In this document: in pieces, positions 39,016-50,816 of the stretch
Layout: each line of letters begins with the position of its first letter
Position numbering within the stretch: the first letter of the stretch is position 1
NCBI GenBank assembly: GCA_023301565.1
Contig: JALZUO010000034.1
Span: forward strand, 3,621-67,620
Length of the DNA: 64,000 nt
Direction of reading: 5' to 3'
DNA from: Oligoflexales bacterium
Lineage (GTDB): Bacteria; Bdellovibrionota_B; Oligoflexia; Oligoflexales; JALZUQ01
Position numbers and translations under genes: made by a program
The notes under the pieces: generated by a model
Databases searched by the model: none
The model's input: the letters and a program-made list of their open reading frames with translations, nothing else
What the model was told of the DNA's origin: nothing

Positions 39016-39347
39016 GCTTTATCTTTGGGTGTCTTTCGGTAAAAGAACAAGCGGAACAGTCGCTAGCTTCCAGCCATTTTTTTCATGTAGGACTCTCTTT
39101 TTTTGGTTAAAAAAGTGTAGCTACTTTGAGGTCTTCTTCAAACACTCGTAACCATTGGAAGTAATTTCTTTCTTTCCATTGCCCCCGGAAATAATTGCCC
39201 AGAAACTTTAAAAAATTATCGAGGGGGAATCAACTATTACCTTTTTATAATTTATGTCTTTCTCCAGTTTGGTCGAACAGAGAGTACTATGGATAATCGC
39301 GCTTACTTTTTTAGAAGGTGCGTCAATTTTTGAGATTAGGAGTTATA

Positions 39348-40835
39348 ATGAAAAAGTTTAGAATTGCAACAAGCGCACTGCTGGCGATTTTCTTGACTGG
39401 AGGGTGTGGAGAAAACTCTCACTTAAGCTTAGAGAACCTTATTAGTGCAACGCAGGGAATTGAGCCAGAAGTTGCAGCGGTCGATCTAGACCTTTCTGCA
39501 GGGGTAGGACTAAACACCCCAACAAACCTAACCGGTGCTTGTTCACCAGTAGGGTCAGCAATTAGTATTGCTAGTCCGGATATGACTCCTAGCCCAGTGA
39601 GTGGGGCCTGCGGCAGTGGCGGAGTGTTTACCATTTCAACTTCCGTTGTATTTGACGGAACAGGTCAAAACGGTTCAAGCCCTGTTTTGGCTACTACGCT
39701 TACCAGTCCTGATGGGGTCACGGCGCAAGACATGGATACAACCGCCTTTGTTCCGGTTGCTGAAATCACTACAGATTTACAACCAGATGGTTCGTCAAAC
39801 TTAGGCCTATCTTTAACTGATGCTAACGGAGCGCCTTTGGCTCCAGGTGACACAGTCATGTTTACGGTGCGAGATAGTGCAACAGGTGCAGCAATCGAGA
39901 TTCTTACGGGAGATTACGGCCAACCTCTAACAGGTTATGCAACAGATGAAGCAGTTGCTGCTAATAGCATCCAAAGTTATATCACTTCTCCGGGAGACAA
40001 TATTACAGACGGTGGAGCGCTTGAATTTGATAAGCTCGCTTGGGCCAAAGCTACTGGCAACATTGGTGTTAATAAAGGTATCAAGCTTCAATTTGATCTA
40101 GCTGCTACTGATGCCTCTGCCGGAACGACTTCTATAACTGATAGCGCTACCATTGGTAAAGGTTTCTTGAAGTTAGACGGGGCACTTGGGGTGACTGTCG
40201 CCGCCAGTTCATTAAATGCTCCGTACAATTGCCCTGATAATACTCGTTTTGTAGCAGGAAACACGGCTGTATCAGAGCTTGTTGACTCTAGTATGGCAGA
40301 AACAAGTGAAGATGGGTTTACATGGGTATCAAAACCTTCTGTCGCTGTAGGCACTTCAACAGCTTTTTGTTCAGATGCACAGCCTGGCACAGTAAACAGT
40401 ACCTGGGGTAGAGTTGCATTAAAGGAGCCGTCCTTTGCTCCCGGTTCATTTGATGGGGCATCGTACTATGCGCTTCAAAAATTAGAGAGAGGAAGTCTTG
40501 GTAATTTTTACGCAGTAAGATCTTTCATTTTATCTGGAAATGCAAATAACCTAGATGTTACCAATACATTGGTAGATATAGAATCTCAAACTCGTACGCA
40601 GTCCCTTAATGGTACGACCTTCTCTAACATGTTTATTGAAGCAAATCCTGGTGTTGGTCTACCAGCAGCGGCAACGTTCAACCCGCCTTTTGACAACAAT
40701 AACAACAGCAGCATTGTTACGACTGAAACCCATGATTTCAATGGCGGCGAAGGCGTTTACCACATTCGAACCGAGCTTGGCGGTGGACCGCATTCTTCTG
40801 AGCAGGATATGTATCTGCTACTCATTAGTTTCTAG
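39348..40835 (+). CDS. Hypothetical surface lipoprotein, Thr/Ser/Gly/Ala-rich
   Basis: AGGAG lies 5 nt before ATG 39348. Signal plus lipobox (IFLTGGC). Low-complexity T/S/G/A-rich sequence without recognisable domains. The ORF extends to 39318. Confidence 0.6.
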   Translation: MKKFRIATSALLAIFLTGGCGENSHLSLENLISATQGIEPEVAAVDLDLSAGVGLNTPTNLTGACSPVGSAISIASPDMTPSPVSGACGSGGVFTISTSVVFDGTGQNGSSPVLATTLTSPDGVTAQDMDTTAFVPVAEITTDLQPDGSSNLGLSLTDANGAPLAPGDTVMFTVRDSATGAAIEILTGDYGQPLTGYATDEAVAANSIQSYITSPGDNITDGGALEFDKLAWAKATGNIGVNKGIKLQFDLAATDASAGTTSITDSATIGKGFLKLDGALGVTVAASSLNAPYNCPDNTRFVAGNTAVSELVDSSMAETSEDGFTWVSKPSVAVGTSTAFCSDAQPGTVNSTWGRVALKEPSFAPGSFDGASYYALQKLERGSLGNFYAVRSFILSGNANNLDVTNTLVDIESQTRTQSLNGTTFSNMFIEANPGVGLPAAATFNPPFDNNNNSSIVTTETHDFNGGEGVYHIRTELGGGPHSSEQDMYLLLISF

Positions 40836-44313: not shown

Positions 44314-45879
44314 TTATGCTACGGCCGAAGCTTCAAATCTTCTTGTAAGTAAAACCTTGATCTGCCCCGGGAATGCCACGTCTTGCTCAATCTTGCGAGC
44401 AATAGCTTCGGTCAGTTCTTTGATTTGATGTTCGCTGACTTTACCAGGCTTTACCTCGACGTGAACCTCGCGGGCACCGTTCATAATAAAGACCTTATCA
44501 ATGCCCTGAAAACTGCGAATTGCTGTCTCTAGATCCGCCAGGCGCATTTGGTAACCCTCTTCTAGGTTTACGCGCGCACCAGGGCGAGCGCCAGAGAGCG
44601 TGTCCGCTGTTTTTAAAACATAAGCGAGCGGTGTTTCTACTATGAGTTCATCATGATGCGACATAACCGTGTCGCAGATTTCCTGGGACTCACCAAAACG
44701 GTCTGCATAGTCGCCGCTAATAACCGCATGGCCTAAAGGTATATTATAGTCGATGCTTTTTCCGATATCGTGCATCAGGCCGCAGCGCCGCGCTTTTTCT
44801 GCATCCATTCCAAGCTCTTCACCGAGGATCCCTGCTATTTTGGCAACTTCAAAGGTGTGGAGGTATTGGTTTTGGCGGTAGCTGGTTCTCCAGTTTAAAA
44901 AGCCAACCATACGCTGAATCTCTTCGTGTATTTCAGAAATTCCAAGGTGCCTTACTGCCCGGTTTCCAAGCTGTAGCGCATGGTGCCATAGTTTCTGACG
45001 ATACTTCTCGTAGGAGTCATCTATTTTTTGCCACTGTGAAATTGTACCCTGCGTAGTCTCGATGATGGCAAGTCTTGCGGCTTCTCTTTTGATGCCCATT
45101 CCACCGCTAAGCTTGATGAGCCCAGGTCTTTTTTCTTGCTGCTCTTGAAATTCAATATCTATCTCAGCAAGCTCTCTTAGCCTGTCCAGCTCGGGCTGGT
45201 GCTCAAGCTTAAACATCATTGTGTGTGGAGATTGGCCGAGCTCTACTACGTTGGAGCTTTTTGGCCAAAAGAAGTTTGGCTCATAACGCGTTAAGACTTG
45301 GTGCAACGAACGGCGCGCCTGTTTTTTTGAAGACTCTTTAAAGTGGGTGACTATGTCTTCATAGTGGCGCACGGCTTCTCTGTGCCGGTTGTCAGCTAGC
45401 TGCTCTTTGATTTTTTCTTGCAGCTTCGAGACGTCTTCGCCAGCAATCTTGGAAAGCTCAGACTCGATGACTCCGTCGATGGTTGTTACTTTTTCACCGA
45501 TTGCTTGCGACTCGCTTTGAATGATCGAAATCTGCCCTTGCCGGTAGTTCACTTCTTCTTGAAAGCCTTCAAGGCGGACTTGTTCGCTTTTTAAAAAATC
45601 ATCCTGGCGGCTTAAGTCTTCTTCTTTGTTACTTGCGCTATCTAGGCTTTCTTCCGAAAGCTCTTGTTCGCTTTCTTTGAGCCTTCTTAGTTTGCGCTTT
45701 TGGTATTCCGTTTCTTTACGTTTTAGGTGGCGCATCCTTTTTTCTTTGCGGTGCTTAGCGCCCTCTAATTTTGCGCCAAGCTCCTGGTGCTTAAGACCGT
45801 TTTGTAAAAAATAGAGTGCCCACGGGATGAAGATTCCGACAGCTGCTCCAGCAAGAATAAAAATGTATAAAGAACTCAT
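44314..45879 (-). CDS. rny: Ribonuclease Y
   Basis: N-terminal TM (LYIFILAGAAVGIFI), long coiled coil, KH region, and HD domain (HSHFVAK-equivalent region plus GLMHDIGK). An alternative start lies at 45903. Confidence 0.9.
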   Translation of the reverse strand: MSSLYIFILAGAAVGIFIPWALYFLQNGLKHQELGAKLEGAKHRKEKRMRHLKRKETEYQKRKLRRLKESEQELSEESLDSASNKEEDLSRQDDFLKSEQVRLEGFQEEVNYRQGQISIIQSESQAIGEKVTTIDGVIESELSKIAGEDVSKLQEKIKEQLADNRHREAVRHYEDIVTHFKESSKKQARRSLHQVLTRYEPNFFWPKSSNVVELGQSPHTMMFKLEHQPELDRLRELAEIDIEFQEQQEKRPGLIKLSGGMGIKREAARLAIIETTQGTISQWQKIDDSYEKYRQKLWHHALQLGNRAVRHLGISEIHEEIQRMVGFLNWRTSYRQNQYLHTFEVAKIAGILGEELGMDAEKARRCGLMHDIGKSIDYNIPLGHAVISGDYADRFGESQEICDTVMSHHDELIVETPLAYVLKTADTLSGARPGARVNLEEGYQMRLADLETAIRSFQGIDKVFIMNGAREVHVEVKPGKVSEHQIKELTEAIARKIEQDVAFPGQIKVLLTRRFEASAVA

Positions 45880-45985
45880 GGTATAAACTCGAATTGAAAT
45901 CATTGAAAATGGCTACAACACCGACTGGGTAGCCTCTTGCAGAATAGGATAGTATAAATCGGCAAGTACCGAAAGATGACACACC

Positions 45986-46714
45986 ATGGCTTTTAGCAAT
46001 TTAAATCATCATCTCAGCCTCTCACAGTTGCCAGGCTGGTTTCTGGGGCTACTCATTTTTTTAGGTGGTTTCACGACATGGGCAAGCTCAGAAACAGTAA
46101 AACCTGCTGCATTTTTAGAGGTCGTCTGCAGCTCTAATGAGCAGGGGCCATTGGTGCTCTTTGATTGGGCAGCACATAAATTTATAAAGAAGAGCCAGTC
46201 AGATAATCTCAAGCCTTGCCTTAGCGGTCTTAAGGCCTGGCTGACTAAATACGAGCTAGATTGGATGTCTCTTGTAGGTTCTGAGCAAGACATTCTCAGC
46301 TGCCTTGTAAGCAATAGTTCTGGCTGCGGGGTATCACCCTCCGGGATTCAGTACCCAGAGCGAAGCCGCAAACAGGCAGCTCTCAGCAAAAAGAAAAGCA
46401 AAGGTGTGGTTTTTGAAGTACCAGGTTCAGTGTTAAAAAACCTAAAAAAACAAGGCTTTACAGTTCTTCTTCAGGACCAAAATAAGTGGCCGCTCAAAAG
46501 CAGACGGCAACTGGGGGCCGGAGTAGGGCTGTTTTTGCGTTGGGGCGAGCCTTTGCTAAAAAAGCATACAAACTGGGTTCGCGTGCCGCTGACGCATATA
46601 AAAAGTAATCTCTTTCAGCTAGACCGCAGCGTCTGGCTAGCTTTAAGAGGGGGGCTGCCTGAGATGGAAAAAAATGGCCGTATTTGGATAAGCGGGCCTG
46701 CTCCAAAACCTTGA
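45986..46714 (+). CDS. Hypothetical secreted or membrane-anchored protein
   Basis: N-terminal hydrophobic segment (GWFLGLLIFLGGFTTWA). No motif. Confidence 0.45.
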   Translation: MAFSNLNHHLSLSQLPGWFLGLLIFLGGFTTWASSETVKPAAFLEVVCSSNEQGPLVLFDWAAHKFIKKSQSDNLKPCLSGLKAWLTKYELDWMSLVGSEQDILSCLVSNSSGCGVSPSGIQYPERSRKQAALSKKKSKGVVFEVPGSVLKNLKKQGFTVLLQDQNKWPLKSRRQLGAGVGLFLRWGEPLLKKHTNWVRVPLTHIKSNLFQLDRSVWLALRGGLPEMEKNGRIWISGPAPKP

Positions 46715-47531: not shown

Positions 47532-47654
47532 ATGGTGCGTCTAAAATACAGACGGGACCTGTATGGAAAATAGTCAAAAAATTGTGGAAAAGTTATTTAG
47601 ACAATGAAGAGTCGAGACGCTTATCATGCACAGAATTAGAACGGTGTGCAAGCT

Positions 47655-47710: not shown

Positions 47711-49645
47711 ATGGCAAAAACAAAGACAAAAACACGTGCGCGTTCCGGGCGGATTACCAAAAGTAGTACGGCTGAATACTTTTCAAAAAACTTACAGCAA
47801 GTAGGTTTTTCATCTCCGACTAAAGCAGTTCTTACTACGTTAAAAGAAGCTGTCGATAACGCGCTTGATGCCTGCGAAGATCACGGCATATTGCCAGACC
47901 TTCGTATTGAAATAGAAAAGCTTGGCGCGGGCTCGCTAAAAAACACAGATCAAATACGGGTTCTTGTCAGTGATAACGGGCCGGGTATCGGCCCTGATGA
48001 TGTGCCAAGAGTTTTTGGTGAGTACCTTGCCTCTTCAAAGTTCGGACGTGGACGGTGTTCTCGAGGGCAGCAGGGTATTGGTATTTCTGCAGCGACAACC
48101 TGGGCTCAGCAAACAACTGCTACTGGTGCCCGGGTGATATCTAAAACATCGAGCATGCGTAAAGCTGTTTCTTATCTTGTTGAAGTTGATCTAAAAGGAA
48201 ACAAAGGCAGGATTAAAGAAAAAGAAACCGTAGAATGGGACCGAAAAAACGGTACCAGCGTCGAGTTTATTTTTGACGGCAGGTTGCAGTACAACGGAGA
48301 GGCTGGACTGCACGCCTTTATAAATGGAAATATTTTAGTAAACCCGCATATGAAGCTTGTTTATAAGCTTCCTGCCGGCGAAGAGGTAACAGTAGAGAGG
48401 GTAAGCGAAGAAATCCCTCGCATCCCCGAAGCTGTAGATCCTCACCCTCACACAATGAAACTAGGTGATTTTATAGGCCATGCAGGACTGTTTGGCCCGG
48501 ACAAAACAACTACTTGGTTAAAAAATGGTTTTTCAAGAGTGTCGCCTTCAGCCATTAAAGAGCTCGGGGGTATTCTTGGACCCGAAAAAGGAATCCTTAA
48601 TGGGAAGGTTAGCGCCCTTAAAGAGGCGCAGATTAAAAAGCTTTATACGTCTATCCAAAAAACCAGCCTTAAAGCTCCAGCAACTTCCAGTGTTTTAGCC
48701 GTGGGCGAAAGCAGCCTGGCAAAAAGCATCCGCCGACTTGGCGAGGTTGACTTTATTTCTGTGCACACAAGAAAGCCAACCATATGCGATTTCAAACCCG
48801 TTCAGGTCGAGGTTGCAATTGCTAGGCTTAAAGGTAGCAACTCCGAATCAGAGTCTAGTGTTTCGGTTATTCGTTTTGCAAACCGGGTTCCTTTGCAGTT
48901 TGATAAGGCTTCTTGCGCTATCGTAAAGTCGATTCAATCGGTTAACTGGAAAACTTACGGACTTAGGCAGAGCAAGGGAAGCTTGCCGCAAGGGTCTTTT
49001 ATTTTAGCGGTTAGCGTTGTCTCGCCTTTTATTAAGTTTAAGAATGCTTCGAAAGAAACCATCGATGCTTCAGATGAGCTGGTAGAAGAGCTTCGGAGGG
49101 GGTTGATGAAGGCCGGGCAGAAGCTCTCTCGCCACCTTAAGCGTGAGAAAAAAGCAGAGGAGCTGACCAATAAGATTCAGCACATAGAATCTTTTGCACC
49201 TATTCTCGTTAATATTCTTTGCAGAATCACAGAAGCACCAAATAAAAGAAAAGAAGCTGCGGCTGCCGGTCTGCAAAAAATTCTTGATCGAGACATGAAA
49301 AAAGCAAAGGTCCAATACGACGATGCTGCAGCAAATCTAGAGCAGCACCTAAGCTCGCAGCTTGAGGCCATGCCAGATGTCTTCAGAACCTATAAAGACC
49401 CAAAGAAGACAGTCGAGGAAGCGCAAGAAACTAAGCTGGGTGCAAAAGACGCTGAGATTGCAAAGCTGCAAGATGAAGCCGAAGAAAACGCAAACTCTTC
49501 TAAAACTAAAATAAAAAAGAAGTCTAAAGGCAAGAAGACAGCGAAGAAAAAAAACACTAAAAAAGTCGCTAAGAAAACAGCCAAAAAGAAGAAGACAGTT
49601 CGTAAAAAAGCTACGAAAAAAAGCAAAACGAAGAGAAGAAGGTAG
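47711..49645 (+). CDS. top6B: DNA topoisomerase VI subunit B (GHKL/Bergerat ATPase, H2TH, transducer) with a C-terminal polylysine tail
   Basis: Bergerat motifs EAVDNALDA (nt 47846-), DNGPGI (nt 47972-) and GQQGIGISAA (nt 48065-). An H2TH-like segment (LGDFIGHAG...FSRVSPSAIKEL) precedes a transducer-length region. AAGGAAAA RBS lies before ATG 47711. Confidence 0.85.
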   Translation: MAKTKTKTRARSGRITKSSTAEYFSKNLQQVGFSSPTKAVLTTLKEAVDNALDACEDHGILPDLRIEIEKLGAGSLKNTDQIRVLVSDNGPGIGPDDVPRVFGEYLASSKFGRGRCSRGQQGIGISAATTWAQQTTATGARVISKTSSMRKAVSYLVEVDLKGNKGRIKEKETVEWDRKNGTSVEFIFDGRLQYNGEAGLHAFINGNILVNPHMKLVYKLPAGEEVTVERVSEEIPRIPEAVDPHPHTMKLGDFIGHAGLFGPDKTTTWLKNGFSRVSPSAIKELGGILGPEKGILNGKVSALKEAQIKKLYTSIQKTSLKAPATSSVLAVGESSLAKSIRRLGEVDFISVHTRKPTICDFKPVQVEVAIARLKGSNSESESSVSVIRFANRVPLQFDKASCAIVKSIQSVNWKTYGLRQSKGSLPQGSFILAVSVVSPFIKFKNASKETIDASDELVEELRRGLMKAGQKLSRHLKREKKAEELTNKIQHIESFAPILVNILCRITEAPNKRKEAAAAGLQKILDRDMKKAKVQYDDAAANLEQHLSSQLEAMPDVFRTYKDPKKTVEEAQETKLGAKDAEIAKLQDEAEENANSSKTKIKKKSKGKKTAKKKNTKKVAKKTAKKKKTVRKKATKKSKTKRRR

Positions 49646-49652
49646 ATAACTC

Positions 49653-50816
49653 ATGGCAAGACTACAAACATCCAAAAAATCAAAAGATGAAATACCAAAG
49701 ATTAGCAAAGCCTTGTGTGAGAAGATGATTGCTGACCTGGAAAAGGCCAGAAGGCCTGTTCTTCAAGCAACCAAATGCTCGCTAGACAACTCTATTTATA
49801 GCCCTGGAAAAGGCTACCTCACGCCAGGACCCAAAAAAGTAAGTAGTGAGCTGAACGTAAGTTCGGTAAAGAAAATCTCGAGATCTATTTTTATGCTAGA
49901 GATTCTTCTTAGAAACATTGATACCGGCAGCGTAAACACAAAGCGTGAGCTTTACTACATGGCTAAAGGTGAAGTGAAGCACAATAAGGATCTTAGGGTT
50001 CTGGATTTTAAAGATCAGGACGAGTCGGACTCGATCGTAGATTTTTTGTGCGAGATGATCGAGTGTTACAGAGAAGACATGAACTGCTACGCAAACGACC
50101 GGGGTGGTCAAACCTTCTCGCAGTGTTTGGTTGTGCACGAAACTATGCCTGACGGCAAAAAAGCGGTGATTGATTTAAGTAAGCTCGGTACCTCGCCGTT
50201 TCAGCCAAAGAACAGGCCACAAAATCTAACTCTTAAGGCTAAAAAGAAAATTGATTTTTGTTTGGTTATTGAGTCTGAAGGTACCGCTAACACTTTGGTT
50301 TCAAATGGGATCTGCAAGAGGAATAACTGCATAGTTGTTGGCTCGCAAGGGGTTCCTTCGAATGCAGTGCGAGGCTGGGTCAAAAGGATTCAAGAGCAAC
50401 TAAAAGTACCTATCTACTTTTTTGGTGACTTGGATGCTTATACTATCCAAAATATTTTTCGTACTCTTAAGGCTGGCTCTGCAGCATCGCTCATCCGCAA
50501 TGCTGACTATAGCGCTCCAGAGGTTCGTTTTTTGGGCGTGCTTCCAGAGGACATCAAAAAGTATGATCTTGCTGATTACACGGTTAAAAGTGACAACGCT
50601 AGCGATCTTAGAGCTCTGAAGAAAGCAAAAGATATTTTAGCTAACGACCCGTTTTTCAAATCACCGAAAAATAAAAAGTTAGCTTCGATTTTGCATTGGC
50701 TGATTAAAGAAAAGAGGCGCTGCGAACAGCAGGCTTTGTTTACCGTAAATCCGCGGGATCCGATCATGCCAGAGAAAATTATTTTAGAGAAAATAAAAAA
50801 GAAAAGTTATATTTAA
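49653..50816 (+). CDS. top6A: DNA topoisomerase VI subunit A (Spo11-type 5Y-CAP plus Toprim)
   Basis: KRELYYMAKG with the catalytic-Tyr-type YY at aa 101-102. Toprim acidic motifs LVIESEG (aa 205-210) and FGDLDAY (DxD, aa 259-261). Starts 7 nt after the top6B stop. Confidence 0.85.
   Translation: MARLQTSKKSKDEIPKISKALCEKMIADLEKARRPVLQATKCSLDNSIYSPGKGYLTPGPKKVSSELNVSSVKKISRSIFMLEILLRNIDTGSVNTKRELYYMAKGEVKHNKDLRVLDFKDQDESDSIVDFLCEMIECYREDMNCYANDRGGQTFSQCLVVHETMPDGKKAVIDLSKLGTSPFQPKNRPQNLTLKAKKKIDFCLVIESEGTANTLVSNGICKRNNCIVVGSQGVPSNAVRGWVKRIQEQLKVPIYFFGDLDAYTIQNIFRTLKAGSAASLIRNADYSAPEVRFLGVLPEDIKKYDLADYTVKSDNASDLRALKKAKDILANDPFFKSPKNKKLASILHWLIKEKRRCEQQALFTVNPRDPIMPEKIILEKIKKKSYI

Follow-up and report, generated by a model that had tools for sequence, protein, structure and literature searches.

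A lysine-rich, predicted disordered C-terminal tail on topoisomerase VI subunit B in a Bdellovibrionota clade

In the actinobacteria Streptomyces and Mycobacterium, topoisomerase I (TopA) ends in a lysine-rich, low-complexity C-terminus that also contains acidic residues; its lysine repeats stabilise the enzyme-DNA complex and raise processivity, and Streptomyces requires that processivity at sporulation, when it has many chromosome copies to process (PMC5714199). The C-terminal domain (CTD, or ChT) of eukaryotic topoisomerase IIα is also disordered, basic and catalytically dispensable and is reported to control residence time on chromosomes (PMC3824022, PMC5713405). The type IIB enzyme topoisomerase VI (topo VI) of M. 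mazei is distributive and prefers DNA crossings and bends (PMC5922973). In solved structures, archaeal subunit B (Top6B) ends either in a short helix (S. shibatae, 2ZBK) or in a globular immunoglobulin (Ig)-like CTD (M. mazei, 2Q2E and the 9O-series structures from cryo-electron microscopy). Here we describe a 64,000-nucleotide stretch of DNA from an Oligoflexales bacterium (assembly GCA_023301565.1, contig JALZUO010000034.1, positions 3,621 to 67,620 of the forward strand; hereafter the window), in which the top6B gene codes for a protein that shares the GHKL, H2TH, transducer, WKxY, stalk and hairpin elements of these archaeal subunits, but then continues for 116 extra residues and closes with a predicted disordered segment carrying a net charge of +29.

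The top6B gene (47711..49645, plus strand) encodes 644 amino acids plus a stop codon, and was identified by its Pfam matches (Topo-VIb_trans, 7e-44; HATPase_c, 1.3e-9), by its closest solved structure, M. mazei Top6B (PDB 2q2e_B, E=4.7e-82, query residues 18-497), and by a database protein, P0001, which is identical to the 644 residues read from the ATG at 47711. Public gene calls and the N-termini of homologues make this ATG, rather than the upstream TTG at 47582, the likely start. Residues 1-528 (47711..49294, plus strand) make up the conserved core of GHKL ATPase, H2TH, transducer, stalk helix and C-terminal helical hairpin. Within it, the GHKL (Bergerat) domain has its E, N, D and G motifs (E46, N50, D88 and G90/G92, all invariant in alignment A1), and the transducer and long stalk helix are present, with NWKTYGL aligning with the WKxY motif of the M. 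mazei protein (IKWKQYGL). As in archaeal topo VI, a top6A gene with the catalytic Tyr and Toprim motifs adjoins (49653..50816, plus strand, 387 aa; Pfam TP6A_N 2.8e-14, TOP6A-Spo11_Toprim 1.9e-39). Its ATG at 49653 lies 7 nt past the top6B stop, its translation shows RELYY, ESEG and DLD motifs, and the top6B-top6A order is the same in three homologous loci (L081, L082 and L083). Judged from its sequence, the protein is a Top6B by every core test except for the basic KGRR loop, which is taken up below.

Three parts make up the 116-residue C-terminal extension: a helix extension, then a weakly acidic linker, and last a basic tail. The first of these, supported by alignment and by an AlphaFold2 model, covers residues 529-560 (MKKAKVQYDDAAANLEQHLSSQLEAMPDVFRT; 49295..49390, plus strand), and 28-30 of its 32 residues are identical in the two nearest orthologues. 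The linker (residues 561-597; 49391..49501, plus strand) has 10 D/E and 6 K/R for a net charge of -4, is predicted to be disordered, is poorly conserved and carries in-frame indels. It gives way to the polycationic tail (residues 598-644; 49502..49642, plus strand), which, with the stop codon, occupies 49502-49645 and is translated in the Top6B frame as KTKIKKKSKGKKTAKKKNTKKVAKKTAKKKKTVRKKATKKSKTKRRR. An earlier sequence-only reading of this DNA had counted 29 Lys/Arg in these last 47 residues and had quoted the sequence just before them as ..EEAQETKLGAKDAEIAKLQDEAEENANSS; the linker sequence is found as quoted, and a recount gives 25 Lys and 4 Arg with no acidic residue, for the net charge of +29. 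By composition the tail is 53% K, 15% T, 8.5% A and 8.5% R, and given the background K+R content of the 17 long open reading frames (ORFs) of the window (12.3%), the binomial probability of finding 29 K/R in 47 residues is 1.7e-15. With 18 K/R it is also denser than any other 30-residue stretch of the window, whichever of the six frames is read. Within these 64 kb, a general habit of lysine-rich tails was rejected as an explanation, the next-densest stretches being those of L20, L35 and the RNase Y N-terminus, at 13-15 K/R per 30. Two Phe/Leu-rich ORFs run antisense over the same tract (49349-49708 and 49390-49626, minus strand), and their composition identifies them as mirror images of the A-rich sense strand and not as genes.

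The AlphaFold2 model of Top6B (41-sequence alignment; mean predicted local distance difference test score, pLDDT, of 72.7) describes the core well, with a stalk helix at residues 455-507 and a second helix at 511-553, which reaches residue 553 with falling confidence. Homology to 2q2e and 2zbk has by then run out, at query residue ~497-513. Disorder prediction had been suggested by the sequence-only reading, and in the model pLDDT is below 50 for residues 560-644, with no secondary structure after residue 574 and no folded domain beyond residue 553-573, so that this part of Top6B is predicted to be disordered. The same reading had described the linker as coiled-coil-like. This did not hold up: the model has a short, low-confidence helix at 564-573 and coil beyond it, and so lends no support to a coiled-coil linker. 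Nor was an Ig-like globular fold found after the hairpin, the match to 2q2e_B stopping at chain residue 484 of 621. A Pfam search of the 47-residue tail gave no match at E<=10, while a search of the whole 116-residue extension gave sub-threshold noise alone, so that Pfam shows no hidden domain (H1, Hc1 or other) in tail or linker. The label Histone-H1-like that had been given to the tail is therefore apt for its composition, in that it is a lysine-rich disordered tail with A/T/S/P spacers, whereas no linker-histone or Hc1 family domain was found in it by Pfam; the likeness to H1/Hc1 is compositional only.

The sequence-only reading had also raised the worry that a frameshift or read-through within the A-rich tract had produced the tail, and this was settled in favour of the tail. 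Over 3,935 nt the window matches an ENA scaffold from a separate deposit (L083) with 100% identity, and the identical Top6B protein is recorded for 5 contigs, although both sets of records may stem from the same reads. More decisive, as a comparison between sequences, are the two nearest orthologues (P0002/L081 and P0003/L082; 90-92% core identity), which lie on unrelated contigs. When the last ~500 nt of the window gene were aligned with L081 and L082 at the DNA level, the coding indels were found to be multiples of three in every case (9, 9, 15, 3, 36 and so on), and 1-nt gaps fell past the stop codon only. Frameshift or read-through is thus ruled out by the identical scaffold together with the frame-preserving indels. 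Of the two other frames over the tail, one contains many stops and the other a stop near the tail start. Tandem Repeats Finder reported nothing in the tract at score >=30, and the Lys codons AAA/AAG are used in similar proportion in the tail (15/10) and elsewhere in top6B (39/22). The tract is for these reasons unlike the product of recent poly-A slippage, and recent tandem duplication or slippage was excluded as its origin. Taken together, the comparative evidence identifies the tail as a genuine in-frame part of Top6B.

Alignment with orthologues, another check put forward by the sequence-only reading, showed what is held constant. The number of K/R in the last 47 residues is 29 in P0001, P0002 and P0003, 27 in P0004 and P0005, and 28 in P0007, even though core identity in these relatives falls as low as 68%. 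In the segment-by-segment comparison with the two nearest relatives the core is 89-91% identical to that of the window protein, the tail 55-68% and the linker 27-62%, so that the sequence drifts while the basic residues are kept. Absence of a basic tail from close relatives, which would have spoken for a lineage-specific artefact, is not what is seen. The conserved feature of the tail, as read from these alignments, is its charge and not its sequence. K-rich tails are moreover found in loci of 34% to 57% GC. All 25 Lys codons of the tail are one transversion away from a stop, and the fact that the frame has stayed open across this divergence suggests purifying selection against truncation.

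To place the tail within the wider family, we searched protein databases and recovered 7,812 homologues, the closest 120 of which (547-715 aa) were inspected. Nearly all of these 120 come from metagenome-assembled genomes of Bdellovibrionota/Oligoflexia, together with Pseudobacteriovorax antillogorgiicola, and their public records are annotated plainly as "DNA topoisomerase VI subunit B". In GTDB species genomes, a scan detected 38 loci belonging to the clade (56-67% identity), along with 42 more at ~35% identity that come from Planctomycetota, Acidobacteriota, Myxococcota, Gemmatimonadota, other bacterial phyla and DPANN archaea. We then aligned 195 Top6B sequences (154 from the Bdellovibrionota clade and 41 from the outgroup) and took the equivalent of residue 528 as the end of the hairpin. 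In 36 of the 41 outgroup proteins the chain stops 2-4 residues past this position (…LERSRKM), and in the other five it continues for 12-49 residues, three of these being acidic DPANN tails. All 154 clade members, by contrast, extend 23-192 residues past the hairpin, and the helix extension is present in 154/154 of them and absent from the outgroup. The layout shared in the clade is a continuation of the helix that leads, usually by way of an acidic block, into a basic block. By this alignment, the 116-residue extension is confined to the Top6B clade of Bdellovibrionota, and an origin of the tail within that clade of topoisomerase VI is the best explanation for its distribution.

Density of the basic block varies within the clade. 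Among 145 unique extensions, 56 reach at least 11 K/R per 30 residues, 15 reach at least 15, and 12 reach the level of the window protein, at least 18, whereas the maximum in the 41 outgroup sequences is 8. The similarity clusters grouped with the window protein have very dense tails in all members, and two extensions are much longer than that of the window protein: P0082 (Pseudobacteriovorax), with 169 residues and 70 K/R, and P0090, with 192 residues and 82 K/R. The tail of Bdellovibrio bacteriovorus is short. An exhaustive HMMER search of 1.84 billion representatives clustered at 50% identity gave 311 matches at E<=1e-30. For the 73 listed representatives that cover the C-terminus, the highest density outside the clade is 13 K/R per 30 residues, in P0142, a protein of an unrelated ~35%-identity lineage with an independent, PAK-rich basic tail. 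Across family representatives, Top6B tails are acidic, mixed-charge or absent, and in many archaeal Top6B proteins, among them those of the DPANN loci L065, L071, L074 and L078, the tail is of low complexity and strongly acidic (for instance …EPEEDEESEEDEE), opposite in charge to the tails of Bdellovibrionota. The C-terminus of Top6B looks like a hotspot for charged disordered tails.

The sequence-only reading had stated that the canonical Top6B lacks such a tail, and had proposed that a tailed enzyme would be a new architectural variant. The first statement is borne out both by the solved structures, whose homology to the window protein ends before the extension, and by the 41 outgroup proteins, none of which has the tail. 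The second stands in part: the architecture is absent from the studied enzymes, but it is not unique, as dozens of public Bdellovibrionota Top6B sequences have basic tails. A full-text search of the literature on topo VI and Top6B (lysine-rich, basic tail, disordered, Bdellovibrio, Oligoflexia) returned no description of the tail, and papers that model bacterial Top6B mention only that the Ig-like CTD is absent (PMC11302465). The tail is therefore a real variant of a known enzyme, in sequences that are public already, and is itself undescribed in the literature searched.

Of the described systems, actinobacterial TopA offers the best functional analogue. Both proteins are topoisomerases with a C-terminal lysine-rich low-complexity region that is conserved within a lineage. 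TopA, however, is of type IA, shares no homology with Top6B and has catalytic domains unrelated to it, so that the likeness is convergent; moreover the acidic residues follow the lysine repeats in TopA and precede the basic tail in the window Top6B. The CTD of topoisomerase IIα, part of a type IIA enzyme, differs in its much greater length, in its regulation by phosphorylation and SUMO and in its binding to nucleosomes. In plant and other eukaryotic topo VI, extra non-catalytic DNA-binding capacity is likewise provided by RHL1 and BIN4, which are required there (PMC11302465), but these are separate, eukaryote-only polypeptides, whereas the basic module of the window protein is fused to Top6B. 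The Ig-like CTD of gyrase-encoding archaea is inserted at the same point, past transducer and hairpin, in hosts that also have gyrase (PMC9348778). That domain is folded and globular, unlike the disordered, polycationic extension described here, and an extension is missing from most of the other outgroup bacteria that have both gyrase and topo VI. Bacteria also have H1-like lysine-rich proteins and tails, including Chlamydia Hc1, mycobacterial HupB, Streptomyces HupS and AlgP, in which K alternates with A/T/S/P spacers in KKxAKK-type patterns. The window tail shares this composition, but has no homology to these proteins and no globular DNA-binding domain, and a topoisomerase should be present in far smaller amounts than a nucleoid-structuring protein.

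The one core element in which the window protein departs from the model enzyme is the KGRR loop. In the M. mazei enzyme this loop senses the T-segment or DNA crossing, and strand passage is abolished when the charge of the loop is neutralised or reversed (PMC5922973). In the window Top6B it aligns with N195-G-E-A198 (48293-48304), so that the basic loop is missing, and the position reads N/K-G-E/D-A/G in 154/154 clade members, whereas most of the 41 outgroup proteins retain K/R-G-R/K-R/Q/H. On this alignment, the clade that carries the C-terminal module has lost a DNA-sensing element that the model enzyme cannot do without. Since some archaeal representatives also have no basic residues at this position, the loss is not unique to the clade.

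During this analysis, we also noted that tails in a sister subclade (L001, L007, L038 and P0053-P0115) contain invariant hydrophobic motifs amid variable charged sequence. The arrangement K-rich–DDILSVFAPEK–K-rich occurs in 17 unique sister-subclade sequences, KKRLKAF(R/K)DEDD stands at a fixed place ~29 residues past the hairpin, and related forms include QVSLFEEDD (L014), QTELFPE (L023) and a C-terminal QAALFAD (L020). In sister subclades, the pattern Φ-x-Φ-F was observed 41 times against 2.9 expected from shuffles, in sequences that are interrelated. Bacterial proteins bind the sliding clamp through a QL[SD]LF motif, which the ILSVF-type motifs of the sister subclade resemble, and the peptide KKKSKDDILSVFAPEK is a candidate DnaN-docking segment. 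The window protein itself contains no matching Φ-x-Φ-F; its one divergent form, MPDVF (EAMPDVFRTYK, 49364-49396), which stands at the place of the first motif, fails the pattern, and a clamp-binding-like motif was accordingly rejected for this protein.

How might the tail act? From its position and from the precedents above, we consider it somewhat more probable than the contrary that the tail is a built-in electrostatic DNA tether, with DNA binding and a catalytic effect. In M. mazei the C-terminal hairpin binds the winged-helix domain (WHD) of Top6A, and the arms of the sharply bent G-segment follow Top6B along its outer edge, where they reach residues close to the C-terminal end of the stalk (PMC13040014). 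The tail would begin just past the hairpin that docks on the Top6A WHD and so would leave the enzyme at the A/B junction, on a leash of ~70 residues of which ~25 would be helical and ~45 disordered. An A2B2 enzyme would then have two flexible +29 tails, +58 in total, near the point at which the bent G-segment exits the Top6A channel to run along the Top6B stalk, each with charge enough to neutralise ~14-15 bp of duplex. Binding would be electrostatic and independent of sequence, either to the arms of the G-segment or to a second duplex nearby. Such a tether could slow dissociation and retain the enzyme on the nucleoid, could allow sliding or hopping between crossings, and might also bridge to a second duplex, so that an otherwise distributive type IIB enzyme would gain DNA affinity, salt tolerance, processivity or better capture of DNA crossings. 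In Bdellovibrio, multiple chromosome copies are present in the filament before synchronous septation, and chromatin is histone-based (PMC11318664, PMC11390915).

Several points weigh against a tether. A polycation binds any polyanion, including RNA, polyphosphate and acidic proteins, and DNA is no more than its likely partner. About half of the closest 120 homologues end ~30-45 residues past the hairpin in a slightly acidic sequence without a basic block, and the existence of so many tail-less homologues implies that the tail is dispensable for the core enzyme. In addition, the extension varies from 23 to 192 residues and only 15 of 145 have at least 15 K/R per 30, a spread of length and density that is also typical of weakly constrained low-complexity sequence.

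The alternative that survives best, though we think it unlikely, is that the extension is a targeting or regulatory module, serving retention on a compacted, histone-bearing nucleoid, co-condensation with nucleic acid or the binding of some other polyanion or partner, with the acidic block as an intramolecular mask. The acid-then-base layout is general in the clade, and one subclade has ~27 acidic and ~27 basic residues in its extension; in the window protein, however, a linker of net -4 faces a tail of +29, which makes masking weak. The invariant DDILSVFAPEK-type motifs of the sister-subclade tails point to partner binding, but no ILSVF-type motif occurs in the window protein. A module of this kind would also fit the histone-based chromatin of Bdellovibrionota (PMC11390915) and the proposal that the archaeal Ig-like CTD directs the enzyme to a partner or cell region (PMC13040014, PMC9348778).

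Rather unlikely, in our view, is that the tail has no specific function, the free C-terminus simply tolerating charged disorder that drifts between acidic, mixed and basic states through small in-frame indels. The Top6B C-terminus is the most variable region of the family, with lineage-specific folded extensions in gyrase-containing archaea (PMC9348778), and drift would account for family tails that are acidic, mixed-charge or absent, as well as for a clade extension of 23-192 residues in which many members lack a basic block. What drift does not readily explain is that K/R is held at 27-29 of 47 over six lineages despite sequence change, that 25 Lys codons one step from a stop stay open, that acidic and basic residues are sorted into blocks instead of being mixed, and that basic tails persist over a GC range of 0.34-0.57.

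Selection at the level of the mRNA is very unlikely to account for the tail. The last tail codons (Arg-Arg, AGA AGG) form a Shine-Dalgarno-like purine run, GAAGAAGG (49635..49642, plus strand), which lies 10 nt before the top6A ATG and may serve as the top6A ribosome-binding site, in which case the terminal Arg-Arg codons would do double duty; the purine run also takes in the TAG stop of top6B. If the A- and purine-rich 3' end of top6B were kept as an unstructured leader or ribosome-binding site for coupling to top6A, the lysines would be a by-product. The 7-nt distance from stop to ATG, the presence of AGAAGGTAG at a distance of 5-7 nt from the ATG in the window as well as in its close relatives L081 and L082, and the purine richness of acidic and basic blocks alike are all consistent with this idea. 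Tail-less orthologues, however, couple top6A equally tightly (from an overlap to a few tens of nt), a Shine-Dalgarno sequence needs only the last 2-3 codons, and a purine constraint would neither sort Glu and Lys codons into blocks nor fix the K/R count. Lastly, the idea that a homopolymer indel among the A runs of 5-8 bases in the tract caused a false read-through is effectively refuted already by the identical, separately deposited scaffold, by orthologues on unrelated contigs that share both frame and stop-to-ATG junction, and by the stops in both alternative frames.

The genes around top6B are those of an ordinary housekeeping region. Upstream lie genes for DnaK, an OmpA-family protein, a TPR protein, RNase Y, L35 and L20; downstream of top6A come a HAD hydrolase, a dioxygenase, a GloB-like hydrolase, a methyltransferase, a histidine kinase and an SDR, and further on RibD, a PLP decarboxylase, GDPD and a class II aminoacyl-tRNA synthetase. 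The order rny…rpmI-rplT-top6B-top6A-HAD-dioxygenase-gloB is kept in L082, and a mobile-element or defence context was ruled out by this synteny and by the housekeeping neighbours. The RNase Y-like protein (HD domain; 44314-45903, minus strand) has a basic stretch, KLEGAKHRKEKRMRHLKRKETEYQKRKLRR, after its N-terminal hydrophobic segment, which with 15 K/R in 30 residues is the second most basic in the window. No Pfam match was obtained for two sizeable ORFs close to the ribosomal-protein and top6 genes: 45986-46714 (plus strand, 242 aa), which begins with a hydrophobic, signal-peptide-like segment, and 39318-40835 (plus strand, 505 aa). The syntenic locus L082 holds a 254-aa ORF, also without a Pfam match, at the same position.

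Charged disordered tails are familiar on topoisomerases, which makes a tailed Top6B moderately rather than highly surprising, and should the tail prove to be without effect, it would be one more lineage-specific low-complexity extension. A wider possibility, which we regard as doubtful, is that the clade has a rewired type IIB enzyme, in which loss of the KGRR loop is accompanied by gain of a helix/acidic/basic module that acts as chromatin tether and catcher of the second duplex, and in which the motifs of the sister subclade dock the sliding clamp. If so, the enzyme would be a processive, nucleoid-resident decatenase instead of a distributive one, suited to organisms whose DNA is histone-coated and whose many chromosome copies are resolved simultaneously, and in sister lineages the ILSVF-type motifs would additionally dock it on the sliding clamp of the replisome. 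What topo VI does in bacteria is an open question (PMC11302465), and the slow, distributive action of the archaeal model enzyme is a puzzle (PMC5922973). Related Top6B proteins that range from having no tail, through mixed-charge tails, to polylysine tails of +29 and up to ~+65 provide a natural experiment on DNA tethering, and could yield a topo VI that is more active and more easily studied. If true, the tether would extend to type IIB enzymes the use of disordered basic tails to set residence on DNA, as in TopA of type IA and the topoisomerase IIα CTD of type IIA.

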